This document shows positions 6,001 to 27,582 of a stretch of 27,582 nt of DNA, piece after piece (the first letter of the stretch is position 1; the number at the start of each line of letters is the position of its first letter). The notes beneath the pieces were generated by a model. The model did not search any database, was not told the DNA's origin, and saw only the letters and a list, made by a program, of their open reading frames with translations. This stretch comes from Candidatus Omnitrophota bacterium (GTDB lineage Bacteria > Omnitrophota > Gorgyraeia > Zapsychrales > Fredricksoniimonadaceae): the NCBI GenBank assembly GCA_016196515.1, contig JACPXN010000097.1, positions 1 through 27,582 of the forward strand, in the 5' to 3' direction. The translations under genes were made by a program, and so were the position numbers.

Positions 6001-9000
6001 AGGAGAAATTGGAGGTATTTAAGGCGGACGCCGGTTCCCGGCGCCTGTTGGATCCCCGGACGGTTGCAAGCGCCATTGACCTGGTGGTCCCGGCATTGCC
6101 CCGGGACATGCTGGCGCCAAAGAAGGTATTTTATATTGAAACCTCCGGCCGTTCGCCGCCTAATGCGACCTTTGTCAACGATGACATTGTTGTGTTCGCA
6201 GGCCCCCAAGTAAAGATCATCCCTTCCTTATTGGCCCGTATTCTTATCCATGAGATCATTGAGTCCTACTGGGTCCAACACCACCCGTCGGTGCGCATGG
6301 AGCGCAGGCATGAGTTGGCCCGCCAGGCCGAGGCATGGCAGGGTATTGCCGCCGAGGGGGCTTCGGACATCATTCAAATGTTTGAGTTAAGGGACAAGCG
6401 GCCCGTGACCGGGCCACTGACCAGACGACACCTTCCTCCGTTCATTGTCCAGCAACGCCTGAAAGCCAAAGACCTGTATGCCGCGTATTTCGATATGCTC
6501 ACCATGTTTGACGGGATATTCGAGCATCCGTTCGAAGCGGAATCCCGGGCTTTGGAAAATTATTGGCATTCGTTCGGATGGGAGCATCTGACCCCCCTGG
6601 CCATACAGTTGCGGGAGATCCGCGAGTGCCAGGACAAGGTGAGACTGTTGGGCGCGCGTTATCAGATCTGGGAGCAGTCGCGCACCACGGCAGAACTCTT
6701 TTTGCGCAAACAACAACTCTATAACCGCGTAGGGCTACCTACGGCCGGATCCATGCCTGTTCAGGCGCAGGATGTGCGCGCGGTTTTCGAGGTCCTGCAG
6801 GATTTGCCGATCCGCGACAGCGCCCAGTTCATTGTCTTGCAGGGCCTTGTCGATGACCTGTTGAACACCTCGTGGTCCGGGGAGATATGCGACGGGCCGG
6901 CCTGGTTCTTCGACCAACTTCGCTTTGCGAAAATACCCGTGGCGGCCATGCATGACAGCCGCAGGGTTTACGTCGATCCCCGCCTGAAAACAAGGCAACG
7001 CACAAAAGACATCCTTTATTACAGAGCGGCCATGGCCGGCCAGCGTTTGTCCGTCCTGGGGTATCCCAAGGAAGCGTGTTTGGCGACGCAGGGCGGGATC
7101 TATGTACATATGAAAGAGCGGGAGAATTACGAGGCCTATAAGACGTATGTGTCCCAACAACAGGAATTGGATGCCCAGGTGCGTCCAAAATTGCGTTTGT
7201 TCCGTCAGTGGGTCTGGGCGCGGCATGTTCGTCGTCATTTCTCCCGCCGTTCGCGGGAACTTATGATCATCAAGGATTATAGGCGTTTGCATCAGGGGTC
7301 TGTGCAGCTGATCCGGATGTCCGGGTTACTGGAACAAATAACGGACGTCAGGGGTCGATTGGACAGGACCTTGCTGGTCCAGCTGACGGGCCGTGCGTCT
7401 AAACAAAACAGGAGAGACCTCAGGTCCCTGCGCCAGGAAGAAGAAAAACTCCACGAAAGGGTCCTTTATTTTCTGGGAACAGGGCCGGACAGACGTGCTT
7501 TAATTCCGAGGTTTTTTGCGCTGATCTGGAGGAAGTTACAGGATGGGACCGACCTCGCCGCTACCCGCGATAGAAAAATATTGACCCCACAGCAGGAACA
7601 AATACTAAGAGAGACATTCCGCGAACAAGAGGAACATGTGCGTAACTTCTCCAAGCCATTGTTCATAAGATATATCAATGAAACGGCTGTCCGTCTTCTG
7701 GCCCTGCAATGGATCACCACGGATCATTTGGCGTATTCTTTAAAGAAGAGGGGTGGGAAAAAGGATATCCGCACCATGAACGGGTTCTTTGATGATTTAA
7801 AAATAATGGGAGCGGATCTGTGGGCAATGCATTATCAAGACCGTTTGAGCAGAAGAGAAAAGATGCTTGTTCATGAAGATCTGGTCAATGCCCGGGACAA
7901 ACAGAAACTTTACGGCGTACTCACCCACGAAGAGGGGGCGATCAGAAGGTTCCCGCATGATTTTAATTTGATCCTGCAGGGCATTGTCGAGTTCGGGCTT
8001 GCCGGGGTCACTGGACAGGAGAGGATCAAAATCAAACAGATGGGTCAGAATGGCCTTAATCGTCCGCAGAAATTGCTTTTAGTGCGCCTGCGGGCATGGC
8101 AGGAAGATATGCAAAGGAGCCCCGGCAATCATAGGTATGGTCTGATTTTTGTAGACTCCCAGATCAAATCATTGCTTAAAGGGGCTGGACGCGGAGTGTT
8201 GGGAATGACGGCGGAAAATTATAGGGACACAATACCCAATTCACTCCAAGGCGGTTTCAATGTGGGCGTGATGGCGGTTGTGGGTTTGATCGGCGCGGCA
8301 CTGTTTGCTTTTATGAGCTTGGCCGCTTCAACTGCCCGTGCCACGGGTCTGTTCGCCGCGCCGGTCGGGGTACAGACAACAGCACAGTCAATGCCGTGGA
8401 TGATGCTCTTGGCCGTGGTATTGGCCGGTGGGTTAATGCTTGGCGCGCGTAGAGTCGCCGCGGGAACCGCGCATAACAATGATCGACAATATTACACAAA
8501 AAAACGTAATGGACAACATGAACAAACCTGCGCCTGTAGAACCGCTCATAATGTACCCCTTTCGTCTGTCAATAATATTATAGAGGTAGAATACAACATT
8601 ACAAAAGAAAAGAACCCTATAAGAAATATCCCTTTTTCGAATGTCCCTGCAACAACTTGCCCGAAAATCAACGTAACGGCTGCCAGGTTCCCAAGATTAA
8701 ACAGGGCTTTACTTAGCTCCTTACGTTGGATCGAATTGAACGTCATTGAAAAGGTAAGCATGATAAAAGACCTCCTGCGGATATTGACGGGGGGAGTTGA
8801 TGTTGTAAAGCGAAGCATGGGGAATGCTTCATTAACGACTATGACAATAAATATATCAATAGATTATGGACCCATGGCCGCAGCCGAAGCCATTGCCACG
8901 CTCGCATTGGATAAAGCGCAAGTCATCGGATATCGCAAAGGAAACCAGCACAGCATTTATACAGTGATCGCCCGCGCGGAGATCCCAGGCCATCAGTTCC

Positions 9001-12000
9001 TGAGCCGCGAATTATTTGATACCGACAGGCCGGGACGTTCCGGCAAATATGACCTGTTGTTCAACGCCCAAGGGCATTTGCTGGCCATTTTCCCTGTGTT
9101 TGGTTTTAGCATTTTACGGCGGCATAAATTCCTGGATTTTTCTCCGTTCTATGTCGCTGTTCCCCGCCTGGATTCTCCCGGTGCATCCGAAAAATGGGAT
9201 GCGTTTTACAAGGAATATTTATCAAACCAGAAGTTGATCGAAGGATATCAGAAGCGTTTTTCCATTTGGGGCAACAGTTATGTGGAGGTGGTCAACGGAC
9301 CCTATGAATACGTGGAGATCAACAAGGTAACAGGGGAATGGGAAGGCCGCGAACTGAATGTGGCCAGGGCCCAGCCGTATTTTGACATGAAGAGTCATTC
9401 TGTGCATCGCGCCCTTATCCCCGTGTTCCCCAGCGTTTACGCGCAGACATCCATTACAAGCGCCAAAGACCGTACCTATTATTCGTCGCTTTGGGCAGAT
9501 ACTCCCGCACCTGTCGGGTTACGGGAAGGCGGCCGCGTCGTTCTCGTCGGACCAGGCTCGGGTCCGGACGCCTGGGTGCTGGCCTTAAAGACAAAGACCG
9601 CCATCAGGGTATTTGGGAAAAATCCCATGGAAGTGGCCAATGTGCGGGCAACGGCCCGCTTGCTTGGTTTTTCCGTGCGGGCCGAAGTAGCGGACAATAT
9701 CATTGATGACCGGGGCCATTTGAGGTTTGACCCGCTGGATTATGATCTGATCGTATGGAACATGCCCAATTATGCGCCGGACTCCGGATATTATGTGAGG
9801 AAAAAGTCCGTCGGATTTGAGTCCATATGGGACGGTGAACACGGAGAAGTGCTCACCCGTTTTGCCATGGGGGTTAAACACGCCGCCCGGCGTAATCCCG
9901 CCATACGCGCATTCATCTGGAACAGCGGGTTTCGCCAGGTGGGGGAAGTGTTTGGCCGCAATGGCTTGTATACACAAAGATATCTTTTGGACAGGTCCAA
10001 TCTTGCGGTTTATCTCATTGGCCGCCGGGCAGCGCAGGAAAATTATAGGGACACAATACCCAATTCATTCCAAGGCGGCTTCAATGTGGGCGTGATGGCG
10101 GTTGCGGGCGTGATCGGTGCTGCCGGTGTGGGGATCATAACATTAACGCTTAAGGGCATGCCGGTACAAAACGGGTGGGGCGCTGTTTTGGTGGTTTTGG
10201 CCGCTGTGGGGTTAATGCTTGGCGCGGGTGGAATCGCCGCGCGTGTTGCGAATGGCGATAAAAAGCGCAAACAGTCCAAAAATGAACAAAAAGATCATAT
10301 AGGGCATCGCAGGGCTCATAGTCATCTCCTTTCACTTAGTAGAATTATAGCACAGGCAAAAAATAATAAAAAAGATAATAGCCCCATTACGAATAACCAG
10401 ACATCGGGCCGTCCTGTCACTGTCTGGCCCAATATAATGAATGGGTACATAGAAACAGTCCTCTGGAGATTTTTAACGGGGGGAGTTGATGTTGTAAAGC
10501 GAAGCATGGGGAATGCTTCATTAACGGCTACGGCGATAAATATATCAATTTTTGGGCGATTTGTCAAATGGACCGTTGCCGCCGACCCCGCCCGCACCAA
10601 GAACAAAATGACCCCGGAGGAGCTGGCCGACTTGAATGCCCGGATGGAGGCGTATATCAAGGAGCATAAACAAGAGGTCCTTTTACAGCCGCCCGCGCAT
10701 GCCCAGGAGAAAGCGCGCGTCATCGCTTTGTTGAGTTCCCGGAAGGAGAATCAGGCTGATGCCAGGGCCCTGGCAGACGCCAAGGTCATCAACGCCCCGC
10801 CGTCTTTGCTGGCCGTTATCCTTGATTCGAAAGCATCCCGCAACAGCAATACCGTCTTTTCCGTGCTTCTTACCATTGGTGGAATAAATTATATAGTCCC
10901 GATCGCAGATATTGAAGCCAGTCTCATGTATGAAGCGGTGAACAGCCGCTTGCGTGCGCAAGGGGCTGGGTACGATGAGATCTGGGAAGCGTATTGTCTC
11001 CTTGGCAAAGACATCACCATAGCATTGGAAGACCATAGCGCGCGCCATGACGCATTCGATGCCATGGGAACACAATTGTTAGTTGGAATTTGTTCAGCAG
11101 GATTGGCGTTAAGCGCCGCCGTGTTGGCTTTGTCCGGTTGTGCTACAGCACCCGAGAAACCTTCTGCGCCGGATTCGGCTGAATTACAAAGAGACTTTGA
11201 TGCGGCGTCCAGCCAGGCAGAGCATTTTTCCCGGGAAAAGACCGATGACCCGAAAGTATTGGAGGACATGGCAGGGATATTAAAAAGATGGATAGGCCCG
11301 GCGACCGTGCAGACCAGGGTGTATGCCCTTCGGGCGTTGGCGTTAAGCGGGGACAAAACAAAGGGTGAAGTGATCGTCAAGTTCGCGCTGAATAACCCGG
11401 AGGCCGATTTGCGCCGAGAAGCAGTTAAGGCCCTGGGAGGGCTCGGGGACAGGAGCGTTGCAGATGATATTGTCAAGCGCTTGTCGGACAAGGACCCCTG
11501 GGTCGTGGCCGAAGCGGCGCGGGTCCTGTGGGATTGGAAGCATGCGGGGGTCGTCAAGCTGTTGACCGACGCTTGGGAGGCGGCACAAGGCAAGGAGGGT
11601 TTCTGGCCAGCGCGGTCTTTGATCGAAGATATTTTACGCAAGGCAGCGGGAGACAGCGATAACTCGATGAGTGGGCCCGCGAAAGAATGGCTCAAAAATC
11701 ATGGGGACACAATACCCAATTCCCCTCGGGCTGGATCTGCTGTGGGCGTGATGGCGGTTGCGGGCGTGATCGGTGCTGCCGGTGTGGGGATCACAACATT
11801 AACGCTTAAGGGCATGCCGGTACAAAACGGGTGGGGCGCTGTTTTGGTGGTTTTGGCCGCTGTGGGGTTAATGCTTGGCGCGCGTAGAGTCGCCGTGGCT
11901 GCCGCGCATCACAATAAAGGTCCCGATCGTAGCGATTACAGCAATAGCCAGATAAGTCCATCCAACACCGTTCATATTATTCCCCCTTCATTCCTAAGCA

Positions 12001-12230
12001 GGATCACTGCTAGTGCATATAGAAGCACGCTGCAACTCATTCCTAGGATCATTATAGCAGGTTCGAAAGCCCCGGCAACTATTTGGCTAAAGATCAATGA
12101 GGCCGCGGCAATGTTGCCTAAGTTAAAAAGCACTTTACTAAAGATCAATGAGGCCGCGGCAATGTTGCCTAAGTTAAAAAGCACTTTACTTAGCTCCTTA
12201 CGTTGGATTTCGGGGAATAGTAAATTCTAA
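3..12230 (+). CDS. Giant multidomain membrane-associated protein, 5'-partial (>4,070 aa)
   Basis: The frame of ORF 57..12230 is also open from nt 3 (WGRIFAFASPKANQAAEAL...), so the TTG at 57 is probably not the true start. Single stop TAA at 12228-12230. Contains several recognisable enzyme-like domains and TM hairpins. Confidence 0.85.
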   Translation, partial: WGRIFAFASPKANQAAEALARIKAQIYRELQGGVPAKGIKAVFEELLALDEEARKIFEKWGRDLILNAIDPAMGLWLVPNIGEHAQVREEQIALLGKFQCPFMIGTETATEGPSTGIFKLVIEPWFAAQKAELEKEGLTDAYRMAVCDILNTALREKPGRWAEGFYRQIYDSSEQFDQMLKTAMEKLTQEPGKEKFKRNVELARKNVAMCRELCGVFEDAMLELLSDYSGLSKELKGLIMREAGAAKYHALHEIANEWLAILQPTKYQQEEPLMAVFMDAKRAYLQTVSAQMNLLEKGDFAHVSLRMLLAEGRQQQVDLLAQRIAPHYREGLFKEQEAAAFFDNIAAVLLGEADSRVKLDIKMEHDGPVVLKLNFVPTPGEFRRLEDLLNSRLEAVINGQGTVTSHYLLCSTKKYPTYIIDASRPDETKGLLPNEEVILMNGKIYLRPGKTRRRESALQVEAAQKFDRAVRVRAPSSRVRVGANQDTPQGIKFAVGENGADFIGLARLENMCDRMVFLTAREFAQKFLAIVDAAKGKPVTLRVVDIPEKTDKVPAPFAFARRQGDLWWKDHPLGRAVTRQIARATQQLLEQRKTAQVKFILPMVNSTEDLDEADGLWSQAIGRAPDRRLGVMVETKGALDDRERLARRAGASSFGTNDWTAALYGIDRLAAESATFYDNIMPRIVWGEAHYARLANEGGVIPSVCGDQAGDKRFWVVRDIFKRRGILIDISVAPALVPLAKTWIDVLERLDPGKVPGLSLVENMVGHIMDSRYEDLGDRANEAFDTALREVVKTVDRALGEELRALDTTPPFVPDHGPSNDGKVRDLGTLVVMTVGLGSLSGFYGLTALAVFVLSAVFMAMGHWRNQETAQQKVEKELRRGLGKIMELFERAHGTSAQNKNADHVLIRKLRAGVIRHNIDNPYRVKKGTAVTILINGDTIIDALPQRLRPRNYPMQKPWAVVFTYFDHPIRRWAHFESMVSLYGRGEPGRERSNQSTGPVDYVADKKATNHLRWFSIAVVAAFLGVVTAHAWAVGVAVLGVGVAMTVILVPLIWALHHKDNQRHIRLLSDGLLETVALAHGMSDASNALVPFDGAFARIVGGIGASRRAILREWARSLTLVDVLGQSYIPYYGMRLDSEDMERVEDTARATARDVNIILPGPVTLGHSVSGGGLPMQEWHLKGLSVYKLFRMLVRLPFVQKNFFQGVVISRETNEPFVGLAIHGLNNRIGMDIVRSLSLDESAAGVELVGIIGRREGYSNRRFQQIYATQGGLPNAVMRQIFKNITNQSSAFLNHVRLPEGVVRKEFVPGGSTDALARAQVIILAGRINSFTEEDALALIVLAPAVNGGRPGAIIIEATPYAASDEARKTLADSGRLLINASTANIGELTAMAMEYQYRLRAEKFKPHHGEYVKTEITGRVIANAYRQMRNLQDIPEDQPRQYLEMVARENINYIQRFDALLDWLFDQTERMDRLSSVLRQEELHRLSLRFERETGTGNDHQEAARRFIGLVRRQTRRVPDQSRDLNYTYLLRQTVFEQISGRWVSPEEIERCVPLLSDKSAQNKMGRVAAVFLIAERIYKDQKERGVVQGLLAEALKDEYYAVNMQAARAMVVHGHEGAPGDLIDALGTQMDSRVREMIMYALIHGNFKINWPEQIYKARERLGTARAGLKDQYKRRRKFKEDPEKTAAVQAEIYEAAQQVANASFFLGSLYRVRARGGVGGAAALAVHFYHQTSRYFRLATGEAGRRALEFNIKIADLWHEIGEERGSWDALIENDRKAVAALLDVFSVAGSSYLIFSGSKPYAQVTAKGLEFIRSQNPRTAFKKLLMIYGFEATAAEDFAYAVTEFLRRKPPTQDGTRDFWMRKETHWAGLRRGVSELMGEFSLSEVGRAVNKHEIWSQNSVWMKLILLTGSYLFVPVELKLNARAPYEGFNEQVAALEALVRKMIVAKKVPDLNKQGLSPEALDFVKWLLKETGVLKAGRRGQWAAFRGKLTKEEKEKLEVFKADAGSRRLLDPRTVASAIDLVVPALPRDMLAPKKVFYIETSGRSPPNATFVNDDIVVFAGPQVKIIPSLLARILIHEIIESYWVQHHPSVRMERRHELARQAEAWQGIAAEGASDIIQMFELRDKRPVTGPLTRRHLPPFIVQQRLKAKDLYAAYFDMLTMFDGIFEHPFEAESRALENYWHSFGWEHLTPLAIQLREIRECQDKVRLLGARYQIWEQSRTTAELFLRKQQLYNRVGLPTAGSMPVQAQDVRAVFEVLQDLPIRDSAQFIVLQGLVDDLLNTSWSGEICDGPAWFFDQLRFAKIPVAAMHDSRRVYVDPRLKTRQRTKDILYYRAAMAGQRLSVLGYPKEACLATQGGIYVHMKERENYEAYKTYVSQQQELDAQVRPKLRLFRQWVWARHVRRHFSRRSRELMIIKDYRRLHQGSVQLIRMSGLLEQITDVRGRLDRTLLVQLTGRASKQNRRDLRSLRQEEEKLHERVLYFLGTGPDRRALIPRFFALIWRKLQDGTDLAATRDRKILTPQQEQILRETFREQEEHVRNFSKPLFIRYINETAVRLLALQWITTDHLAYSLKKRGGKKDIRTMNGFFDDLKIMGADLWAMHYQDRLSRREKMLVHEDLVNARDKQKLYGVLTHEEGAIRRFPHDFNLILQGIVEFGLAGVTGQERIKIKQMGQNGLNRPQKLLLVRLRAWQEDMQRSPGNHRYGLIFVDSQIKSLLKGAGRGVLGMTAENYRDTIPNSLQGGFNVGVMAVVGLIGAALFAFMSLAASTARATGLFAAPVGVQTTAQSMPWMMLLAVVLAGGLMLGARRVAAGTAHNNDRQYYTKKRNGQHEQTCACRTAHNVPLSSVNNIIEVEYNITKEKNPIRNIPFSNVPATTCPKINVTAARFPRLNRALLSSLRWIELNVIEKVSMIKDLLRILTGGVDVVKRSMGNASLTTMTINISIDYGPMAAAEAIATLALDKAQVIGYRKGNQHSIYTVIARAEIPGHQFLSRELFDTDRPGRSGKYDLLFNAQGHLLAIFPVFGFSILRRHKFLDFSPFYVAVPRLDSPGASEKWDAFYKEYLSNQKLIEGYQKRFSIWGNSYVEVVNGPYEYVEINKVTGEWEGRELNVARAQPYFDMKSHSVHRALIPVFPSVYAQTSITSAKDRTYYSSLWADTPAPVGLREGGRVVLVGPGSGPDAWVLALKTKTAIRVFGKNPMEVANVRATARLLGFSVRAEVADNIIDDRGHLRFDPLDYDLIVWNMPNYAPDSGYYVRKKSVGFESIWDGEHGEVLTRFAMGVKHAARRNPAIRAFIWNSGFRQVGEVFGRNGLYTQRYLLDRSNLAVYLIGRRAAQENYRDTIPNSFQGGFNVGVMAVAGVIGAAGVGIITLTLKGMPVQNGWGAVLVVLAAVGLMLGAGGIAARVANGDKKRKQSKNEQKDHIGHRRAHSHLLSLSRIIAQAKNNKKDNSPITNNQTSGRPVTVWPNIMNGYIETVLWRFLTGGVDVVKRSMGNASLTATAINISIFGRFVKWTVAADPARTKNKMTPEELADLNARMEAYIKEHKQEVLLQPPAHAQEKARVIALLSSRKENQADARALADAKVINAPPSLLAVILDSKASRNSNTVFSVLLTIGGINYIVPIADIEASLMYEAVNSRLRAQGAGYDEIWEAYCLLGKDITIALEDHSARHDAFDAMGTQLLVGICSAGLALSAAVLALSGCATAPEKPSAPDSAELQRDFDAASSQAEHFSREKTDDPKVLEDMAGILKRWIGPATVQTRVYALRALALSGDKTKGEVIVKFALNNPEADLRREAVKALGGLGDRSVADDIVKRLSDKDPWVVAEAARVLWDWKHAGVVKLLTDAWEAAQGKEGFWPARSLIEDILRKAAGDSDNSMSGPAKEWLKNHGDTIPNSPRAGSAVGVMAVAGVIGAAGVGITTLTLKGMPVQNGWGAVLVVLAAVGLMLGARRVAVAAAHHNKGPDRSDYSNSQISPSNTVHIIPPSFLSRITASAYRSTLQLIPRIIIAGSKAPATIWLKINEAAAMLPKLKSTLLKINEAAAMLPKLKSTLLSSLRWISGNSKF
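300..2250 (+). other. PTS enzyme I (PtsI)/PEP-utilising enzyme-like region of the giant protein (boundaries approximate)
   Basis: Ordered motif matches to EI: ATEGPSTGIFKLV (~ASPGIAIG), GTVTSHYLL (~GGxTSH phospho-His), GADFIGLARLE (~GAEGIGLFRTE), PVTLRVVD, FILPMV, LGVMVET, FGTNDWT..IDR, VCGDQAGD. Confidence 0.75.
3400..4350 (+). other. Degenerate Glu/Leu/Phe/Val dehydrogenase-like region of the giant protein (boundaries approximate)
   Basis: GPVTLGHSVSGGG (~GVVTGKP..LGGS), AIHGLNNRIG (degenerate QGFGNVG), IIIEATPYAASDEARKTLADSGRLLINASTANIGELTAMAMEY (~IAEGANGPTTPEADEIL..RGILVVPDILANAGGV.VSYFEW). Confidence 0.6.
6240..6330 (+). other. Zincin-like HExxE motif (LIHEIIE...RHELA..AE) within the giant protein
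   Basis: HEIIE at 6249-6263 and a second His at 6309; a variant of the HExxH metal-binding helix. Confidence 0.35.
8213..8280 (+). repeat. Module-boundary direct repeat X, copy 1 (ENYRDTIPNSLQGGFNVGVMAV)
   Basis: 68 nt matching 10037-10104 with 2 mismatches; the core gggacacaatacccaattc is also at 11704. Confidence 0.95.
8433..8549 (-). CDS. Antisense nested small single-TM protein B1, 38 aa (MSGSTGAGLFMLSITFFCVILSIIVMRGSRGDSTRAKH)
   Basis: Hand translation. ATG overlaps the TGA of A1 (ATGA coupling). One hydrophobic helix; C-terminus shared with B2 and B3. Confidence 0.7.
   Translation of the reverse strand: MSGSTGAGLFMLSITFFCVILSIIVMRGSRGDSTRAKH
8546..8761 (-). CDS. Antisense nested small 2-TM protein A1, 71 aa (MLTFSMTFNSIQRKELSKALFNLGNLAAVTLIFGQ...LLTDERGTL)
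   Basis: SD AGGAGGT (plus 8770-8776) lies 8 nt before the ATG. Two hydrophobic helices; homologous to A2 and A3. An in-frame upstream ATG at 8818 is an alternative start. Confidence 0.75.
   Translation of the reverse strand: MLTFSMTFNSIQRKELSKALFNLGNLAAVTLIFGQVVAGTFEKGIFLIGFFSFVMLYSTSIILLTDERGTL
8787..8860 (-). promoter_or_regulatory. Repeat Y copy 1: putative antisense sigma70 promoter TTGATA-N17-GTTAAT plus inverted repeat GAAGCAT-N5-ATGCTTC
   Basis: -35 at 8859-8854, -10 at 8836-8831, IR at 8812-8830. 8787-8837 is identical to 10476-10526; the four differences in 8838-8860 all fall in the -35/-10 spacer. Confidence 0.6.
9520..10020 (+). other. Class I SAM-dependent methyltransferase-like domain of the giant protein (boundaries approximate)
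   Basis: Motif I VVLVGPGSGPD and YDLIVWNMPNY, resembling the NPPY motif of HemK/N6-adenine-type enzymes. Confidence 0.65.
10037..10226 (+). repeat. Module-boundary direct repeat X, copy 2 (linker + TM hairpin)
   Basis: 5' part matches copy 1; 10085-10226 matches 11741-11882 with 1 mismatch in 142 nt. Confidence 0.95.
10212..10319 (-). CDS. Antisense nested small single-TM protein B2, 35 aa (MSPAMPYMIFLFIFGLFALFIAIRNTRGDSTRAKH)
   Basis: SD AAGGAG just upstream, within the end of A2. Hydrophobic helix; RGDSTRAKH* tail. Confidence 0.7.
   Translation of the reverse strand: MSPAMPYMIFLFIFGLFALFIAIRNTRGDSTRAKH
10322..10450 (-). CDS. Antisense nested small membrane protein A2, 42 aa (MYPFIILGQTVTGRPDVWLFVMGLLSFLLFFACAIILLSERR), lacking the N-terminal part of A1
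   Basis: AGAGGA lies 8 nt before the ATG, at the same distance from repeat Y as in A1. Aligns to the C-terminal part of A1/A3. Confidence 0.6.
   Translation of the reverse strand: MYPFIILGQTVTGRPDVWLFVMGLLSFLLFFACAIILLSERR
10476..10549 (-). promoter_or_regulatory. Repeat Y copy 2: putative antisense promoter TTGATA-N17-GTTAAT plus inverted repeat
   Basis: -35 at 10548-10543, -10 at 10525-10520, IR at 10501-10519. Confidence 0.6.
11064..11600 (+). other. Internal lipoprotein-signal-like segment (..AVLALSG-C) followed by HEAT repeats (boundaries approximate)
   Basis: MGTQLLVGICSAGLALSAAVLALSGC with Cys at 11139; HEAT-like repeats RVYALRALAL..., LRREAVKALGGLGD..., DKDPWVVAEAARVL. Confidence 0.6.
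11704..11895 (+). repeat. Module-boundary direct repeat X, copy 3
   Basis: Near-identical to copy 2 over 11741-11882; 11867-11895 is identical to copy 1 at 8432-8460. Confidence 0.95.
11868..11975 (-). CDS. Antisense nested small single-TM protein B3, 35 aa (MNGVGWTYLAIAVIATIGTFIVMRGSHGDSTRAKH)
   Basis: ATGA overlap with the A3 stop; GGGGGA upstream; shared GDSTRAKH* tail. Confidence 0.7.
   Translation of the reverse strand: MNGVGWTYLAIAVIATIGTFIVMRGSHGDSTRAKH
11972..12184 (-). CDS. Antisense nested small membrane protein A3 with duplicated first helix; original 5' end apparently lost
   Basis: Homology to A1 extends upstream (IQRKELSK) but that stretch has no ATG and is bounded by TAG. GTG at 12184 has AAGGAG 9 nt upstream. 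Could be a pseudogene. Confidence 0.55.
   Translation of the reverse strand: MLFNLGNIAAASLIFSKVLFNLGNIAAASLIFSQIVAGAFEPAIMILGMSCSVLLYALAVILLRNEGGII
12087..12190 (+). repeat. Perfect 51-bp tandem duplication (17 codons)
   Basis: ctaaagatcaatgaggccgcggcaatgttgcctaagttaaaaagcacttta occurs at 12087 and 12138. Confidence 0.97.
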
Positions 12231-19481: not shown

Positions 19482-19483
19482 CC

Positions 19484-19534
19484 GTAGGGGTTCGATTTAT
19501 CGAACCCGCTGGGCGCGATAAATCGCGCCCCTAC
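19484..19534. repeat. GTAG-family REP doublet (REPIN-like), copy 1
   Basis: GTAGGGGTTCGATTTATCGAACCC-gct-GGGCGCGATAAATCGCGCCCCTAC: two inverted 24-nt palindromic units with GTAG/CTAC ends. Confidence 0.85.
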
Positions 19535-19546
19535 ACAGGATTAAAC

Positions 19547-20617
19547 ATGGACATTCGCAATTTATCCTTTGATGAATTGGCACAATATTTAATCTCCATT
19601 GGAGAAAAACCGTTTCGGGCAGGGCAGGTGTTCGAGTGGCTTTACAAGAAAGACGCGTCCACGTTCGAGGACATGACCACCTTGTCCCAGCCGCTGCGCG
19701 CGCGTCTGGCCGCTGATCTTAGGTTTACGCCCGCCGTCATTGCTGACCAACAGAAGTCTGAAGACGGCACGACCAAATTCCTTTTCGAGTTATCCGACGG
19801 CCAGCATGTGGAGGCGGTTTTGATCCCCTCCGGGCCCACGGCCGGGCGCACAACCGCGTGCATCTCCACCCAGGTCGGCTGCAAGTTCGGCTGCCGTTTT
19901 TGTGCCAGCGGTGTTGCCGGCTGGAAACGCAATTTGTCCACGGCCGAGATCATGACCCAGGTGCTTTACGTCAAGCGTGCCGCGGGCAAAAAAAGGCCTT
20001 TGAGCCACATTGTTTTCATGGGCATCGGCGAGCCCATGGACAATTATGATGTTCTGCTCAAAAGCATTCATTTGATCAATTCCGGCAAGGCGGCCCATAT
20101 CGCGGCCCGCCGCATCACGGTGTCCACCAGCGGGGTCGTTCCCAAAATTTTAAAGTTGGCCGAACAGGACCTGCAGATCGAATTGGCCATTTCCCTGCAC
20201 GGGTATGACAACCCGTCGCGCGACGTGCTCATGCCGATCAACACAAAATACCCCATCGAAAAACTGATGGAGGCCTGCCGCGCCTACGGGGCCAGCAAGA
20301 GAAGGCAGATCACGTTTGAGTATATTCTGATCAAAGGTGTCACCGTCACGCCCGAGGCGCCGGCGGCGCTCAAAAAATTGTTCAAAGGCCTTTTGTGCAA
20401 GATGAACCTCATCCCGTATAATCCCGTCGCAGAATATCCCCACCAATGCCCCAGCCATCCGGAAATGCTGGCATTCCGTTCGGAATTGGAAAAAGCGGGC
20501 ATCCACGCCACCATCCGCACGCCCAGGGGCAAGGATGTCAACGCCGCCTGCGGCCAACTGCGCCACGCGCATCAAAAGGGGAACCATATGGCGTCCTCTT
20601 TTGACAAAAATGGATGA
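19547..20617 (+). CDS. rlmN: Dual-specificity 23S rRNA/tRNA adenine C2-methyltransferase (radical SAM)
   Basis: CISTQVGCKFGCRFC, FMGIGEP, ITVSTSG, LAISLH, NLIPYN, DVNAACGQL. Confidence 0.95.
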   Translation: MDIRNLSFDELAQYLISIGEKPFRAGQVFEWLYKKDASTFEDMTTLSQPLRARLAADLRFTPAVIADQQKSEDGTTKFLFELSDGQHVEAVLIPSGPTAGRTTACISTQVGCKFGCRFCASGVAGWKRNLSTAEIMTQVLYVKRAAGKKRPLSHIVFMGIGEPMDNYDVLLKSIHLINSGKAAHIAARRITVSTSGVVPKILKLAEQDLQIELAISLHGYDNPSRDVLMPINTKYPIEKLMEACRAYGASKRRQITFEYILIKGVTVTPEAPAALKKLFKGLLCKMNLIPYNPVAEYPHQCPSHPEMLAFRSELEKAGIHATIRTPRGKDVNAACGQLRHAHQKGNHMASSFDKNG

Positions 20618-20738
20618 GGATGATATAGTGACGTTCTTTCGCGGGGCTGGCCGATTTTCTGGAAACACATTAAGGAATCGGCACAAGCACCCAAGTTTTT
20701 CTGGAATGTGTTTGAAAATAGTAAGTTTTTGGTAACTT

Positions 20739-20815
<77 letters not shown>

Positions 20816-20823
20816 AAATTTTT

Positions 20824-20907
20824 GCCAAGGTGGCGGAACTGGTATACGCGCTGGTCTCAAAAACCAGTGGTCTCACGGCCGTGAGGGTTCAACTCCCTCC
20901 CTTGGCA
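20824..20907 (+). tRNA. tRNA-Leu(CAA), CCA not encoded
   Basis: Acceptor GCCAAGG/CCTTGGC, discriminator A; anticodon arm CTGGT-CTCAAAA-ACCAG; long variable arm. Confidence 0.95.
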
Positions 20908-20912
20908 TTTTA

Positions 20913-20947
20913 TTTGTAAACCCGCCTTATCCAATCCGGTTGACAAT
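20913..20947. promoter_or_regulatory. BirA-type biotin operator TGTAAACC-N15-GGTTGACA
   Basis: Half-sites at 20915-20922 and 20938-20945 match the known BirA consensus TGTaAACC-N14-16-GGTTtACA; the right half overlaps the -35. Confidence 0.8.
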
Positions 20948-20968
20948 CCAGTCATAATCTTTTAGCAT
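20940..20968 (+). promoter_or_regulatory. Sigma70 promoter TTGACA-N17-TAGCAT of the iscS-bio operon
   Basis: -35 at 20940-20945, -10 at 20963-20968; ATG at 20977. Confidence 0.7.
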
Positions 20969-20976
20969 AGTCATTG

Positions 20977-22137
20977 ATGCAAAACGTTTATCTCGACTAT
21001 GCCGCGACGACGCCTTGCGACCCGCGGGTCGTGGAAGCCCTGCGGCCTTATTTTTATGACACCTTCGGCAATACGTTAAGCCCGCATGCCTTTGGCCGGC
21101 GCGGCCGCAAGGCCGTTGAGGATGCCCGTGAAACAGTGGCCTCTTTTTTGGGCGCCCAGCCGACGGAGATCGTCTTTACGTCATCCGCCACGGAAGCCAA
21201 TAATCACGCCATTTCAGGTGTCGCTTGCGCTTTGAGGTCCAAAGGCAGGCCTGCCTGTCCGGCAGGCAGGCATCTTGTTGTTTCCGCCATTGAGCATCAT
21301 TGCGTCCTTGAACCAGCCCGCCGTTTGATGCAAGAGGGATGCGAGGTCACGTTCGTGTCCCCGGGCAAAGACGGCATCATTTCTCCCGCGGCCATTGAGC
21401 AGGCCCTGCGTCCGGACACCATTTTGATCGCCGTGGCGCACGCCAACAATGAAATAGGCGTCCTTCAACCCGCCGAAGGTATCGGACGCATTGCCCGCGC
21501 AAAAGGTATTTATTTTTTAGTGGACGCGGCGCAAACCGTCGGACATATCCCCGTATCCGTCACCGGCATTCCTTGCGATCTTCTTTCTTTTTCGGCCCAC
21601 AAATTCTACGGTCCCCAGGGTGTCGGCGCTCTTTACATCCGTAAGGGCGTTGAATGCGCGCCGCTGCTTCTGGGAGGCGACCAGGAACGCAATCGTCGTG
21701 CCGGGACGCTCAATGTCCCGGGCATCGTCGGGTTAGGGGAAGCGGTCCGTTTGTGCCGGCCGCTCATGTCCGATGAAATGGCCGCACAGACCGTTTTGCG
21801 CGACCGGATCATCAACGCTGTCCTTCAAGAGGTTCCCGGCGCAGTCCTTAACGGTCATCGCGTTTTACGTTTGCCCAACAATGCCAACTTCTCCTTTGAA
21901 GGCGTCACTGGCGAGGACTTAGTCGCGGCCCTGGACATGGCGGGCATTGCCGTTTCCGTGGGTTCGGCCTGCACGTCGGGCCAGTTGACCCCCTCGCACG
22001 TGCTTAAGGCCATCGGCCTTTCCGATGCCATGGCCCTGGGGGCATTGCGCGTCACCGTCGGCCGCTGGACCACAGCGAAGGATGTCGATTATTTTCTGGA
22101 ACAATTGCGATTAAAGGTGTCGCGATTACGGATGTAG
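20977..22137 (+). CDS. iscS: Group I cysteine desulfurase (IscS/NifS)
   Basis: VYLDYAATTP, FTSSATEANN, SAIEH, VDAAQ, FSAHKFYGPQG (PLP Lys), RAGTLN, VSVGSACTS. ATG at 20977 preferred over TTG at 20974. Confidence 0.92.
   Translation: MQNVYLDYAATTPCDPRVVEALRPYFYDTFGNTLSPHAFGRRGRKAVEDARETVASFLGAQPTEIVFTSSATEANNHAISGVACALRSKGRPACPAGRHLVVSAIEHHCVLEPARRLMQEGCEVTFVSPGKDGIISPAAIEQALRPDTILIAVAHANNEIGVLQPAEGIGRIARAKGIYFLVDAAQTVGHIPVSVTGIPCDLLSFSAHKFYGPQGVGALYIRKGVECAPLLLGGDQERNRRAGTLNVPGIVGLGEAVRLCRPLMSDEMAAQTVLRDRIINAVLQEVPGAVLNGHRVLRLPNNANFSFEGVTGEDLVAALDMAGIAVSVGSACTSGQLTPSHVLKAIGLSDAMALGALRVTVGRWTTAKDVDYFLEQLRLKVSRLRM
21250..21270. repeat. 21-bp palindromic in-frame insertion CCTGCCTG-TCCGG-CAGGCAGG inside iscS
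   Basis: Perfect 8-bp arms; adds PACPAGR into the usual KG[KR]HI/L.S..EH segment. Confidence 0.75.
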
Positions 22138-22186
22138 GGGTTCGATTTATCGAACCCTTTGCGGGCGCGATAAATCGCGCCCCTAC
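22134..22186. repeat. GTAG-family REP doublet, copy 2; supplies the iscS stop codon
   Basis: Both 24-nt units are identical to copy 1, with spacer tttgc; TAG 22135-22137 lies within GTAG. Confidence 0.85.
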
Positions 22187-22198
22187 GGCAAAATAAAC

Positions 22199-23161
22199 AT
22201 GAATGCCCACGACCGCATTGTACAATTTTTAAAGGAAGCCGACGGTTACGTTTCCGGCGAGGAAATGAGCGAGACGCTCAAGATCAGCCGCGCCGCGGTA
22301 TGGAAATACATCGACCATCTGCGCAAGGACGGCTATGGCATCACGGCCGTGCCGCATCTGGGATACCGGCTGGTGTCCGTCCCCGATAAATTATTGCCCC
22401 ACGAAATTCAATCCGGTTTAAATACCAGAACGTTCGGAAAAAATATCGTCGCTTTTAACACCGTCGGCTCCACCATGGATGAGGCATTCCGTTTGGGCAT
22501 GGAGGGAGCGCCGGAGGGAACGCTCGTTTGTGCCGAGACACAGCATAAAGGCCGCGGCCGTCTGGGCCGCGTGTGGTCTTCCCCCAGGGCCAAGGGCATT
22601 TATTGTTCTTTGATCTTAAGGCCGCGGCTTCCGCCGGGGCAATTGGCCCGGTTGACGCTGACCGCGGCCGTGGCCCTGGCCGAGGCCTTGCGCGATGCCG
22701 CGGGAATAGAGCCCGCCATCAAATGGCCCAATGACATTCTCGTCGGCGGCAAAAAGCTCGCCGGCATATTGACGGAACTGCGCGCCGAGGCCGACCAGGT
22801 CAAATTTGTCGTCGTGGGTATGGGCATCAATGTCAATACATCGGCGTCCCAGCTCGTCGATGGGGCCGCGTCGTTAAGGACCGAAACCGGCCGTATTTTT
22901 AACCGGGTCGTTGTGCTGCGGCATATCTTGAGGTCCTTTGAGTCCTGGTACGCGGTCTTGGGGACCCGCGGCCGTTTTGATCCGGTCATGAAGGCGTGGA
23001 AGGCGCGTTCAGCCACTCTCAAAAAACGTGTGCGCGTCACCGGTCCCGGCGGCATGGTGGAAGGGCTGGCCGTGGACCTGGATACCGACGGGGCGCTTTT
23101 GGTGCGTCAGGATTCGGGAGTGATTGTCAAACAAACTGCCGGTGATGTTGTTCATGGATAA
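22199..23161 (+). CDS. birA: Bifunctional biotin repressor / biotin-protein ligase
   Basis: N-terminal wHTH (YVSGEEMSETLKISRAAVWKYI), GRGRLGRVW, KWPND, KLAGIL, C-terminal SH3-like domain. Confidence 0.95.
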   Translation: MNAHDRIVQFLKEADGYVSGEEMSETLKISRAAVWKYIDHLRKDGYGITAVPHLGYRLVSVPDKLLPHEIQSGLNTRTFGKNIVAFNTVGSTMDEAFRLGMEGAPEGTLVCAETQHKGRGRLGRVWSSPRAKGIYCSLILRPRLPPGQLARLTLTAAVALAEALRDAAGIEPAIKWPNDILVGGKKLAGILTELRAEADQVKFVVVGMGINVNTSASQLVDGAASLRTETGRIFNRVVVLRHILRSFESWYAVLGTRGRFDPVMKAWKARSATLKKRVRVTGPGGMVEGLAVDLDTDGALLVRQDSGVIVKQTAGDVVHG

Positions 23162-24311
23162 TTCCCTTCAGGAAGATCTTAATGAATTGCAGGCCCTGGG
23201 ATTGCGCCGTGGTTTGCGCCAAACGCAAAGCCCGCAGGGCCGGGCGATCATCGTTGATGGACGAAGGGTCCTGAATTTTTGTTCCAATGATTATCTGGGG
23301 CTGGCTGACGACGAAAAGGTCAAGGCCGCGGCCGTAGCATCCGTCGGTCAAGACGGTTTCGGTTCCGGCGCTTCGCGTTTGGTGGGCGGCAATATGTCCG
23401 CCCACACCGCGTTGGAAGAGCGTCTGGCCGCGCTCAAAAAGACCGAGGCCTGTCTTTTATTCTCCAGCGGGTATATGGCCAATACCGGCATTATCCCGGC
23501 GCTGGTCGGCCGCGGGGACATTGTGTTTTGCGACCGTCTGAACCATGCCTCCATCATCGACGGCATCCTCTTAAGCCGTGCTCAAATGAAACGTTATCCC
23601 CACGCGGACATGACAGCCCTTGAGGAAAATTTACGGCGGGCGTCTGGGCATCAACGCAAACTGATCGTGACAGACACCATTTTCAGCATGGACGGGGACA
23701 TAGCGCCTTTGAAGGACATCGTGGCATTGGCCCGGCGTTGGGGCGCGTGGGTGATGGTGGATGAAGCGCATGCCTTCGGGGTTTTAGGACCCACAGGCAT
23801 GGGACTCGTCGAAGAAATGGGTTTAAGCGATCAGGTGCAGGTCCAGATGGGCACTTTATCCAAAGCCGCCGGATGTTTCGGCGCCTACGTTTGCGGTCCC
23901 GCTGTGCTTAAAGAAACCCTCATCAACCGCGCCCGCAGTTTCATTTACACGACGGGGATGCCGTCTTGCGTTGCGGCCGCGGCGCATGCAGGGGTCAACA
24001 TCATCGCCGCAGAGCCCTCGCGCCGCCGGCGATTGCTGGGCAACGCCGATCATTTACGCCGGGGGTTTAAGACCCTTGGCCTTGATACGATGCGCTCAAC
24101 AACGCCCATCATTCCTATTTTAGCCGGTGAAGCCCACAGGGCGGTGGCGATGTCGCAAAAACTTTTTGAGCAAGGATTTTTTGTGCAGGCCATACGCCCG
24201 CCGACGGTGCCGGTCAACACCGCGCGTTTGCGCGTGACCGTCACGGCAGTCCATACCAGAGAGGATTGCGATGCTTTTCTGGACGCTGTTAAAACCACAT
24301 GCCTTTTCTAA
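23154..24311 (+). CDS. bioF: 8-amino-7-oxononanoate synthase
   Basis: FCSNDYLGL, GSGASRLVGG, LNHASIIDG, FSMDGD, VDEAHAFGV, GTLSKA, AIRPPTVP. Start placed at ATG 23154, overlapping the end of birA. Confidence 0.95.
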   Translation: MDNSLQEDLNELQALGLRRGLRQTQSPQGRAIIVDGRRVLNFCSNDYLGLADDEKVKAAAVASVGQDGFGSGASRLVGGNMSAHTALEERLAALKKTEACLLFSSGYMANTGIIPALVGRGDIVFCDRLNHASIIDGILLSRAQMKRYPHADMTALEENLRRASGHQRKLIVTDTIFSMDGDIAPLKDIVALARRWGAWVMVDEAHAFGVLGPTGMGLVEEMGLSDQVQVQMGTLSKAAGCFGAYVCGPAVLKETLINRARSFIYTTGMPSCVAAAAHAGVNIIAAEPSRRRRLLGNADHLRRGFKTLGLDTMRSTTPIIPILAGEAHRAVAMSQKLFEQGFFVQAIRPPTVPVNTARLRVTVTAVHTREDCDAFLDAVKTTCLF

Positions 24312-25099
24312 CGACCGACAGAGGCCTGCGCTGGCATTATGAGACGACCGGCGGCGGCGATCCTGTCCTGTTCATTCATGGATTCGGCGGCAGCGGCCGC
24401 TGGTGGGGGGCCCAAGAAGAATTTTTGCGCAGCGGTCATCAGGTCATCATTGTTGATCTGCCCGGCCATGGTCAAAGCGCGTGGATGCCCGTGACGCTGG
24501 GCGGCCTGGCCGTGGACCTGCGCCAGCTCATCAGCGGTCTTGGCATTTCCCAATTCAACGTGGTTTCCAGTTCTTTCGGCGGGCTTATTGCTTTTGAGTT
24601 ATACTGGATGGTCCCCGAGTCCGTCATGCGCATGTCTTTTGTCGGGGCCATCCCGAAATTCGCGCGCGCGCCCGGCTACCCGGCGGGGTTGGATGTAGAG
24701 AAGATCCGCACATTGAGCAATCAGTTCGACGGGGATTACGCGTCCGTCCTGGAAATGTTCTTCCGGTCGCTCTTTACGGCGCAGGAACGCGGCAGTGAAC
24801 GTTTTAAGTGGGTCAGGAATATGTATCGCCGCAGTGTTCTGCCGCAAAGGGAAGCGCTGAAATGTTTCCTGGATATTTTGGAAAAAACGGATTTGCGCGG
24901 TCATCTGGCCGGCGTCATTTGTCCGGTACAATTTGTGACCGGCAGTGATGATTATATCTGTCCCCGGCCGGTCATGGCACGGGTTGCCGAACATTTTGTG
25001 AACGCCCGTTTTGATGTGATGCGGGGCTGCGGCCATCTGCCGTTTCTCACCAAACCCGATGAATATAACCGTCTGTTGGAGGATTTTTTAATCCAATGA
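24299..25099 (+). CDS. bioH: Alpha/beta hydrolase, probable pimeloyl-ACP methyl ester esterase (BioH-like)
   Basis: HGFGG, DLPGHG, SSSFGG nucleophile elbow (GxSxG variant), Asp in GSDD, GHLPF; sits between bioF and bioC. Confidence 0.75.
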   Translation: MPFLTTDRGLRWHYETTGGGDPVLFIHGFGGSGRWWGAQEEFLRSGHQVIIVDLPGHGQSAWMPVTLGGLAVDLRQLISGLGISQFNVVSSSFGGLIAFELYWMVPESVMRMSFVGAIPKFARAPGYPAGLDVEKIRTLSNQFDGDYASVLEMFFRSLFTAQERGSERFKWVRNMYRRSVLPQREALKCFLDILEKTDLRGHLAGVICPVQFVTGSDDYICPRPVMARVAEHFVNARFDVMRGCGHLPFLTKPDEYNRLLEDFLIQ

Positions 25100-25872
25100 C
25101 CGTGTGGCAGACCTTCACCAATGGCGTGCGCAAAGCATTCACCGACGCGGCGGACCAGTATGATATTTTGGCCGGATTACACCGCGAGATCGGCCGCGAA
25201 CTGGTCAAAAAGAACGTGCAGCGTTCGGCAGCGCGCATTTTAGACGTCGGCACCGGCACCGGGTATGTGGCCGATAAAACCAAATTCTTTTTTCCCGACG
25301 CGATGGTGGTGGGGCTGGACATTGCGGAAGGGATGATCAGCAAAGCCGCCCAAACCCATGAGGGGATCCGTTGGCTGCAGGCCGACGGACAGCATTTGCC
25401 TTTTAAGGACGGGACTTTTGATATTATTTTTTCCAACCTCGCCTACCAGTGGATGCCTGACCTGCCCCTGGCTTTTGCCCAGGCCCGGCGCGTCCTGTCC
25501 GGCGGGGGCTTTTTGAGCGGCACGCTGTTTGGTGCAAGGACCTGTGAAGAACTTTTTTCTTGTTTGAAGATGGTCCAACCTGATTTTAACGGGAAAAATT
25601 TACCGCGCGTCGAAGATGTGAAGGATGCTTTGCGTCAGGCCGGTTTTGCGAACGCAAAAGTTGACTATGAACTCATCAAGGTGCAGTTCAAGGATGCGCG
25701 GGAATTGCTGGATTGGCTTAAGAATATCGGTGCCAATAACCTTGCGCAAGAGTTCTTTTTAGGCAAACAAATGCTGCAGAAAGTAGATGAATATTACCGC
25801 GGCCATTTTCCCTATCATGATGGTATTTGCGCTTCTTTCGAGGTCGTATGGTTCGACGCACGCTCTTTATAA
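25096..25872 (+). CDS. bioC: Malonyl-ACP O-methyltransferase
   Basis: F..AA..YD..A..HREIG, ILDVGTGTG, FDIIFSNLAYQW; ATGA-coupled to bioH. Confidence 0.85.
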   Translation: MTVWQTFTNGVRKAFTDAADQYDILAGLHREIGRELVKKNVQRSAARILDVGTGTGYVADKTKFFFPDAMVVGLDIAEGMISKAAQTHEGIRWLQADGQHLPFKDGTFDIIFSNLAYQWMPDLPLAFAQARRVLSGGGFLSGTLFGARTCEELFSCLKMVQPDFNGKNLPRVEDVKDALRQAGFANAKVDYELIKVQFKDARELLDWLKNIGANNLAQEFFLGKQMLQKVDEYYRGHFPYHDGICASFEVVWFDARSL

Positions 25873-26507
25873 CCGCCACGGATACCGGCGTCGGCAAGAC
25901 CATCGCAACGTTCGTTTTAGGGACATTGCTCAAGAGCGAGGGGCTTGACGTCGGGGTGATGAAGCCCGTGCAATGCGGCGGTCATGACGCCGCATTCTTG
26001 AAAAAAGCGCTGGGACTCGACGATGATATTGATGTGATCAACCCGTGTTACGCTCCCGAGCCATTGTCCCCGCATCTGGCTTTTCGCCGCGCCCGTAAAA
26101 AAGTGGATGCGGCAAAGATCAAGCAGGCCTATAAAACCTTGCGTGCCCGTCATGATATTTTGTTGATCGAAGGCGCGGGCGGCTTGATGGTGCCGCTGAA
26201 AAATAATTACTATAATGCCGACCTCATCCGGGACCTGAACACCGGAGTCATCATTGTTTCCCGTCTGGGACTTGGGACCATCAATCACACGCTGTTGACC
26301 ATCAACCAGGCAAAGGCTTATGGGCTAAAAATCAAGGGCGTACTTTTCAGTGACACCGGTCCCGGGCCTAAAGGCATTGCCGAACAAACCAACCCCGTTG
26401 AGATCAGGCGTCTGTCGGGCATCAAGATACTAGGGACCATTCCGTATTTACAACACATCAGCACCAGGGAAGTATTAAGGAAATGCCGCGAAATAACCAT
26501 CGATTAA
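25848..26507 (+). CDS. bioD: Dethiobiotin synthetase
   Basis: FITATDTGVGKT, MKPVQCG, IEGAGG, LGTINHTLL; SD GAGGT before ATG 25848. Confidence 0.95.
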   Translation: MVRRTLFITATDTGVGKTIATFVLGTLLKSEGLDVGVMKPVQCGGHDAAFLKKALGLDDDIDVINPCYAPEPLSPHLAFRRARKKVDAAKIKQAYKTLRARHDILLIEGAGGLMVPLKNNYYNADLIRDLNTGVIIVSRLGLGTINHTLLTINQAKAYGLKIKGVLFSDTGPGPKGIAEQTNPVEIRRLSGIKILGTIPYLQHISTREVLRKCREITID

Positions 26508-27582
26508 GACAAATGGACAAGCGGTATCTGTGGCATCCGTTCACCCAAATGAAGGATTGGGAGAAAGAACAGCCGCTCGTCATCGATTCCGCCGACGGGG
26601 TTTACCTTAAGGACATTGACGGCAACCGTTATATCGACGGGGTCTCGTCACTGTGGGTCAATGTGCACGGCCACCGTCAAAAGGCCATTGATGCGGCCAT
26701 CAAAAAACAAATGGGCAAGGTCAGCCACTCGACGCTCCTGGGGCTTTCTAATACACCCGCGGTGGAATTGGCTAAAGAGTTGATCGCGCTCGCCCCGCGC
26801 GGGTTAAAGAAGGTGTTTTACTCGGACAACGGCTCGACCGCGGTGGAGATCGCCGTCAAGATGGCGTATCAGTTCTGGCAAAACATTGGCCGCAGACAAA
26901 AAACACAGATCGTGCATTTGATCCATTCGTATCACGGCGATACCCTGGGCAGTGTGAGCATCGGCGGCATAGACCTTTTTCATAAAGTGTATCGCGGGCT
27001 TATTTTCAAGACCATCCCGCTGGCCATGGGCCCGAAGGTCGTCGAAGATTTTCAACGGTTGCTGAAAACAAAAGGTGGGCGCATCGCCGCCTTGGTCGTT
27101 GAGCCGCTGGTGCAGGCCGCGGCGGGTATGCTGATGTGGCCCGACGGCGTCCTTAAAAAGATGCGCGCCTTGACCAAAGAGCATGATGTATTTTTGATCG
27201 CGGATGAAGTGGCTACGGGTTTCGGCCGCACAGGCAAAATGTTCGCCTGCGCGCATGAAAAAGTAACGCCGGATTTTTTATGCCTGGCCAAGGGCATCAC
27301 CGGCGGGTATTTGCCGCTGGCCGCTACACTCACGACGCAAAAGGTCTATGACGGGTTCAAATTCGACTATAAAGACCAGAAAACATTTTTTCACGGTCAT
27401 ACCTATACCGGCAATCCTTTGGCCTGCGCCGCGGCGCTGGCCAACCTTAAGATCTTCCGCAAGGAGCGGGTCTTGGCGAAACTGCTCCCTAAGATAAAAT
27501 TCTTGGCCAAACGCCTTAAAGTGTTTTATAATCTGCATTCCGTCGTCGATGTCCGTTGGCTTGGGTTCATGGCGGGCATTGA
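26483..27582 (+). CDS. bioA: Adenosylmethionine-8-amino-7-oxononanoate aminotransferase, 3'-partial (start at 26483 or 26513)
   Basis: Hand translation: LWHPFTQM, YIDGVSSLWVNVHGH, SDNGSTAVEIAVKMA, YHGDT, DEVATGFGRTG, CLAKGITGGYLPL. No stop before the window end, so it is absent from the ORF track. Confidence 0.93.
   Translation, partial: MPRNNHRLRQMDKRYLWHPFTQMKDWEKEQPLVIDSADGVYLKDIDGNRYIDGVSSLWVNVHGHRQKAIDAAIKKQMGKVSHSTLLGLSNTPAVELAKELIALAPRGLKKVFYSDNGSTAVEIAVKMAYQFWQNIGRRQKTQIVHLIHSYHGDTLGSVSIGGIDLFHKVYRGLIFKTIPLAMGPKVVEDFQRLLKTKGGRIAALVVEPLVQAAAGMLMWPDGVLKKMRALTKEHDVFLIADEVATGFGRTGKMFACAHEKVTPDFLCLAKGITGGYLPLAATLTTQKVYDGFKFDYKDQKTFFHGHTYTGNPLACAAALANLKIFRKERVLAKLLPKIKFLAKRLKVFYNLHSVVDVRWLGFMAGI

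Follow-up and report, generated by a model that had tools for sequence, protein, structure and literature searches.

The DNA analyzed here (the window, 27,582 nucleotides of a Candidatus Omnitrophota genome) carries a cysteine desulfurase gene, iscS, as the first gene of a biotin operon whose promoter overlaps a predicted BirA operator. The placement of iscS behind this operator is real and conserved, and it is apparently undescribed. By all sequence criteria the operon belongs to the BirA regulon. The initial annotation had proposed a biotin-regulated desulfurase dedicated to biotin synthase (BioB). The biotin regulation stands, on the basis of conservation, whereas dedication to BioB is not supported over rival readings. 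At a probability of about 0.5, we favor an enzyme that, in aerobic lineages, would donate persulfide without a scaffold and, placed under BirA control, be shared by MnmA, BioB and others.

The operator (TTGTAAACC-N15-GGTTGACAA, 20914..20946) is predicted from sequence and conservation. It has N15 spacing and one mismatch relative to the published BirA consensus, TTGTAAACC-N14/15-GGTTTACAA (PMC545781); the chance expectation for matches with ≤1 mismatch is ~0.0009. At ≤3 mismatches the site is unique in the 940 kb genome, which is 83% complete. Half-site information content was also computed for the operator, but this measure is circular and carries no weight. A sequence scan and conservation place the promoter (TTGACA-17-TAGCAT, 20940..20968, forward strand) so that the -35 element TTGACA (20940-20945) lies inside the right half of the operator, directly upstream of iscS as first annotated, followed by a 17 nt spacer and the -10 element TAGCAT (20963-20968). 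The operator thus overlaps the promoter of the biotin genes, with bioFHCDA downstream. The iscS ATG is at 20977, 8 nt past the -10 element. Given that the gap between -10 element and start is 6-9 nt in 28 of 36 iscS-first loci, the message is probably leaderless.

Immediately upstream, on the same strand, is a tRNA operon encoding tRNA-Ala(GGC) and tRNA-Leu(CAA) (20739..20908), which ends 5 nt before the operator. It has a strong sigma70-like promoter with an extended -10 (TTGACA-17-TATAGT, 20601..20629, 11/12 matches). No terminator-like site was found in the 5 nt gap between the tRNA-Leu end and the operator, and the tRNA promoter is a possible source of BirA-independent read-through. The adjoining tRNA operon, the probable leaderless message, and the continuation of the operon into mnmA-(MORN)-pgi in relatives add to what was first annotated.

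The iscS gene (20977..22137) encodes a class I, NifS/IscS-like protein of 386 aa. It is followed co-directionally on the forward strand by birA (22199..23161), bioF (23154..24311, its start overlapping the birA stop), a bioH-like hydrolase gene (24299..25099), a bioC-like methyltransferase gene (25096..25872), bioD (25827..26507, a profile match) and bioA (26483..27580), which is cut by the contig end. This gene order agrees with the initial annotation; the best matches of bioH (TIGR01738) and bioC (TIGR02072) fall below the NCBIfam cut-offs. In a profile search, the BirA protein has both an N-terminal HTH_11 domain (E 2.6e-15) and ligase domains, as expected of a repressor that is also the biotin-protein ligase, and birA appears to be autoregulated.

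Between iscS and birA lies a REP-like hairpin (22134..22186, -35.6 kcal/mol, z -5.8), and transcript termination at this point had been considered a possible objection to co-transcription. We rejected the hairpin as a terminator. It has no U-tail, is not called by a terminator scan and occurs in many copies in the genome, and in many relatives iscS runs into birA or directly adjoins it. The hairpin belongs to the second of two repeat families, a larger REP-like element with 48 matches on both strands, including one at 19483-19540 between accA and rlmN. The other family consists of 20-21 nt palindromic repeats with 153 matches on both strands (~75 copies genome-wide), some of them in-frame insertions, as at the end of bioB and inside iscS (21249..21271), where a copy absent from the same-genus genome adds 7 residues. 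The window also contains an ORF of at least 4057 aa with an open 5' end (3-12230); giant proteins have been reported for Omnitrophota.

Linkage confined to a single genome had been named as a refuting condition, but the linkage recurs widely. We surveyed 40 relatives from the same order, 38 of which have a birA match. An iscS orthologue is directly upstream of birA in 23 of these and absent in 14, and one contig begins inside birA. The operator is 5' of iscS in 20 of the 23 iscS-bearing relatives and in all 16 further GTDB loci; in G038 it probably also precedes iscS, across a contig break. In 12 of the 14 iscS-less genomes the same operator-promoter sits directly on birA. G016, the one genome whose BirA match has no HTH region, has an operator with a decayed left half-site and provides a natural control for the assignment of the operator to BirA. 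In G035 and G039 the operator has relocated to bioF, and iscS-birA stays together outside operator control. Apparent stages of an operon split can be seen, with two operators in G031 (L133) and an operator only at bioF in G030 (L129), G035 (L132) and G039 (L135, L194). In G036 (L152:7960-11200), operator-birA-bioH-pgi is kept; the locus no longer has bioF, bioC, bioD or bioA, and a search of the genome found no bioB. Extra operator-like matches common to ten relatives are repeats in giant coding sequences and were rejected as regulon members.

In the sister family, iscS-birA occurs in three genomes and no operator was found upstream of it. In two of them the operator is 3' of birA, directly upstream of a gene for a ~595-aa protein of the TonB-dependent receptor type (L256:9067-10923 in G101, where the assignment was checked with Pfam, and L255:4009-5851 in G115). 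Neither genome (96% complete for G101 and 95% for G115) yielded a bioB, and the protein is a candidate for biotin import across the outer membrane.

As the operator, the promoter and their conservation pass every test that could be run, we consider the regulatory claim sound, with BirA predicted to bind the site. BirA control of iscS and co-transcription of iscS, birA and the bio genes are strongly supported by conservation. As the initial annotation noted, a desulfurase is not known among BirA regulon members, and the literature gives the same picture: in a survey of BirA regulons across Proteobacteria, bioABCDF and fatty-acid genes are listed and iscS is nowhere mentioned (PMC5343134), and our search for reports of a desulfurase that is BirA-regulated or encoded with biotin genes, with thin coverage of subscription journals, found nothing relevant. 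In a small sample of 58 IscS homologues from outside the Omnitrophota, neither birA nor bio genes occur within the fetched flanks (≤10 kb).

The same data bear on whether iscS is simply a passenger, with the operator serving autoregulation of birA and control of bioFHCDA, and iscS effectively constitutive, owing to leak or to read-through that starts at the tRNA promoter. Such an arrangement fits the unchanged operator in 12 of the 14 iscS-less genomes, the loss of iscS control in G035 and G039, the housekeeping genes mnmA and pgi on the same transcript, and the tRNA-Leu end close to the operator with no terminator-like site between them. A tRNA ends ≤33 nt from the operator in 10 of 52 loci, but most loci have no tRNA beside the operator. 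Furthermore, many families of the order keep iscS in first position, usually leaderless and immediately behind the operator. We therefore regard a passenger role as improbable.

The desulfurase appears catalytically intact. The PLP-binding Lys209 (21601-21603) and the GSAC-loop Cys332 (21970-21972) are invariant in 39 sequences, and the protein matches IscS structures in the PDB (E ~1e-98), with scores below the NCBIfam cut-offs for both IscS and NifS. As a fold-type I PLP enzyme with the catalytic Lys and Cys, the protein qualifies as a class I cysteine desulfurase. The MSP-type C-terminal tail is present in 0 of 40 copies from this order, versus 3 of 3 in the sister family and 11 of 11 IscU-linked copies. 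In the E. coli complex, the corresponding C-terminal helix contacts IscU and its deletion abolishes binding (PMC2854127). No IscU was found in the iscS-bearing genomes, where the PF01592 matches are SufU-type and lie beside sufS; strong IscU matches occur only in three iscS-minus genomes. Thus, the two hallmarks of an IscS of the ISC/MIS system, an IscU partner and the docking helix, are both missing here. This genome also encodes sufB-C-D-S.

Other lineages suggest where the enzyme came from. In several further families of the class, (iscR)-iscS-iscU is encoded at another site and birA sits in a nadC-uvrB-birA-coaX arrangement at which the operator was not found. The sister family has an iscU locus without iscS; its iscS is now before birA and keeps the MSP-type tail. 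In a quick tree of IscS, the copies linked to birA in this order fall into a single clade (SH-aLRT 99), which groups with the sister family copies; the tree does not settle deeper links, including descent from the iscR-iscS-iscU copies of the class. Based on the tail loss, the restriction of PF01592 matches to the SufU type and the clade pattern, the most likely account of the enzyme is an IscS that has been orphaned and has ceased to act via IscU.

The position of bioB argues against an exclusive partnership with BioB. As annotated, bioB is outside the window. It lies on contig C94 and has no operator, and the suggestion that it would follow bioA downstream was rejected, as it occupies a separate thiC-X-bioB-(korAB)-trxB locus. 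The gene is present in 40 of 41 genomes and in none is it part of the iscS-birA-bio operon. An operator at bioB occurs in only 4 of 38 loci (G005, G014, G021 and G031), which include neither this genome nor the same-genus genome. Two further features of bioB loci were observed. A conserved protein of ~600 aa without a Pfam match is encoded between thiC and bioB, divergently from bioB, in most relatives (L218:4691-6670; C94:1168-3078 in this genome, G000), and G015 has a second, more divergent bioB copy (L211:6693-7649).

A desulfurase dedicated to BioB would rebuild the [2Fe-2S] cluster of its client directly, in the way that NifS serves NadA in B. subtilis. The layout corresponds to that of B. 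subtilis nifS-niaR, a desulfurase followed by a cofactor-sensing repressor with the client elsewhere (PMC2330245, PMC13066941). BioB is of type I with invariant Cys/Cys/Cys/Arg ligands, and in vitro BioB is stimulated by NifS/IscS (PMC8300815). Direct delivery would be in keeping with the lost IscU tail, an A-type Fe-S carrier gene is often near thiC-bioB, and all four genomes whose bioB has an operator are in iscS-bearing clades. However, in the other 34 of the 38 loci bioB lacks the operator that co-regulation would require, and the operon includes mnmA and excludes bioB. Nor do the two genes consistently co-occur: 13 iscS-minus genomes keep bioB, and G101 and G115 carry iscS-birA with no bioB found. 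Where the operator moved to bioF, in G035 and G039, iscS stayed with birA. A complex prediction for IscS and BioB with alignments returned 'no answer' (score 0.00) and was weighed neither way. We consider exclusive service to BioB unlikely. We are similarly doubtful of the more specific proposal that the scaffold-free, biotin-regulated desulfurase and a single A-type carrier rebuild the BioB [2Fe-2S] cluster directly in oxygen-exposed cells; if true, this would be a natural BioB regeneration system, giving a multi-turnover biotin synthase without ISC machinery.

The gene that the operon does include is mnmA. In 26 relatives it comes after bioA, frequently with an overlap between the two, and is followed by (MORN)-pgi, and in the same-genus genome its start is at the bioA stop. 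The contig of this 83%-complete genome ends in bioA and mnmA was not found in the assembly, and its position directly after bioA is predicted from the same-genus genome. These observations raise the possibility that the desulfurase is a dedicated MnmA donor, a YrvO-MnmA-type pair with the biotin genes merely lying between the partners. Pairing of a desulfurase gene with mnmA is known in B. subtilis (PMC13066941) and is seen in homologues from outside the phylum (L078, L100), and in G101 a 5.6 kb stretch free of bio genes separates iscS-birA from mnmA downstream. TusA was not found in three iscS-bearing genomes, which fits direct transfer. Against such a pair, MnmA is C-type whether or not iscS is present, and mnmA stays after bioA when iscS is gone; because all MnmA are C-type, MnmA type is uninformative and was dropped as a discriminator. 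C-type MnmA takes sulfur from either IscS or SufS in vitro (PMC7025502). In addition, birA is near mnmA without iscS elsewhere in the class. A wider role is indicated by the joint loss of iscS, the A-type carrier, korAB and the oxidase. We rate exclusive service to MnmA as unlikely, on a par with exclusive service to BioB.

The presence of iscS tracks aerobic markers and an oxygen-respiring lifestyle, not biotin synthesis. The A-type Fe-S carrier was identified in 23 of 24 iscS-bearing and 0 of 16 iscS-minus genomes; the corresponding counts for the heme-copper oxidase are 20 of 24 and 0 of 16. korAB follows bioB only in iscS-bearing genomes. In G030 (96% complete), which is nested among iscS-bearing genomes, iscS, the A-type carrier, the oxidase and korAB are all missing. 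These counts reflect few independent events, namely a single loss that is clearly nested, a large clade without iscS and a few basal genomes, and perhaps amount to two or three events, not forty. Fisher tests ignore this kinship and overstate the co-occurrence, and we did not rely on them. No split between iscS-bearing and iscS-minus genomes was found for LipA (41 genomes) or for NadA, Nfu and ThiI (5 genomes), and ThiG is missing in G030 and present in G016. As BioB, MnmA and LipA are kept with and without iscS, none of them strictly needs the desulfurase.

We propose the following for a shared sulfur donor. Holo-BirA, acting by the known BirA mechanism on the palindrome over the -35 element, would repress a single transcript of iscS-birA-bioFHCDA-mnmA-(MORN)-pgi. 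Its first gene appears to derive from an iscS-iscU system, to have moved ahead of birA and to have been left without IscU. An aerobe presumably cannot feed sulfur-consuming Fe-S enzymes from free sulfide, and in respiring lineages the desulfurase would instead give persulfide to them directly or via the single A-type carrier. Bulk cluster assembly would be left to SufSU-SufBCD. We infer that the clients are the co-transcribed C-type MnmA and the sacrificial [2Fe-2S] cluster of BioB, and possibly LipA or ThiS. With ample biotin, holo-BirA would repress the operon; when biotin is short, more ligase, more of the dethiobiotin pathway and more desulfurase would be made. Biotin starvation would thereby raise the desulfurase and help BioB, with the donor shared and not reserved for BioB. 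Repression must be partial, and basal expression must persist, since both birA and mnmA are housekeeping genes; read-through from the upstream tRNA operon may add to this expression.

The rebuilding of the sacrificial cluster of BioB is incompletely understood and limits biotin production. The need for reconstitution has been stated (PMC8300815). The genomes studied here offer a small parts list for this process (an IscU-less desulfurase, an A-type carrier, SufSU, type I BioB and C-type MnmA), together with natural plus and minus lineages in which the role of the desulfurase can be compared. They extend the BirA regulon to sulfur mobilization and tRNA thiolation and reveal a desulfurase that lost its IscU-docking tail in an oxygen-respiring lineage. 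Should the desulfurase be a general donor whose control is leaky, the expansion of the regulon is modest.

Compared with the BirA regulons of E. coli (bioO), Desulfovibrionales and Geobacter (PMC545781, PMC5343134), the operon has the same palindrome, spacing and overlap with the -35 element. As elsewhere, BirA has an N-terminal HTH and the targets include bioF/H/C/D/A, and birA is predicted to be autoregulated as in Desulfovibrionales. What sets the operon apart from the known regulons is a cysteine desulfurase as first target, mnmA-(MORN)-pgi at its end, a probably leaderless message and a bioB that mostly lacks the operator. Relative to the MIS/ISC-type iscR-iscS-iscU of other Omnitrophota, the enzyme is 46-56% identical and has the same catalytic Lys and Cys, but the C-terminal docking tail is absent, IscU was not found, iscR is not adjoining and 39 of 40 sequences have another residue in place of a His that IscU-linked copies conserve. 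The sister family resembles the MIS/ISC type in still having the tail and a separate iscU.

Two B. subtilis systems are the closest parallels. In YrvO-MnmA, an orphan class I desulfurase and mnmA likewise share one operon and the main Fe-S system is SufSU-SufBCD, whereas here MnmA is C-type ([4Fe-4S]), six genes lie between the two and mnmA outlives loss of the desulfurase. In nifS-niaR (yrxA), a stand-alone class I desulfurase also comes first, followed by its own cofactor-responsive repressor (PMC2330245), with the Fe-S client in another operon; NifS serves NadA directly (PMC13066941). The cofactor is NAD in B. subtilis and biotin here. nadBCA is co-regulated in B. subtilis, whereas the would-be client gene bioB is mostly without an operator. 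Dedication to a single client is proven for NifS-NadA and hypothetical for the desulfurase described here.
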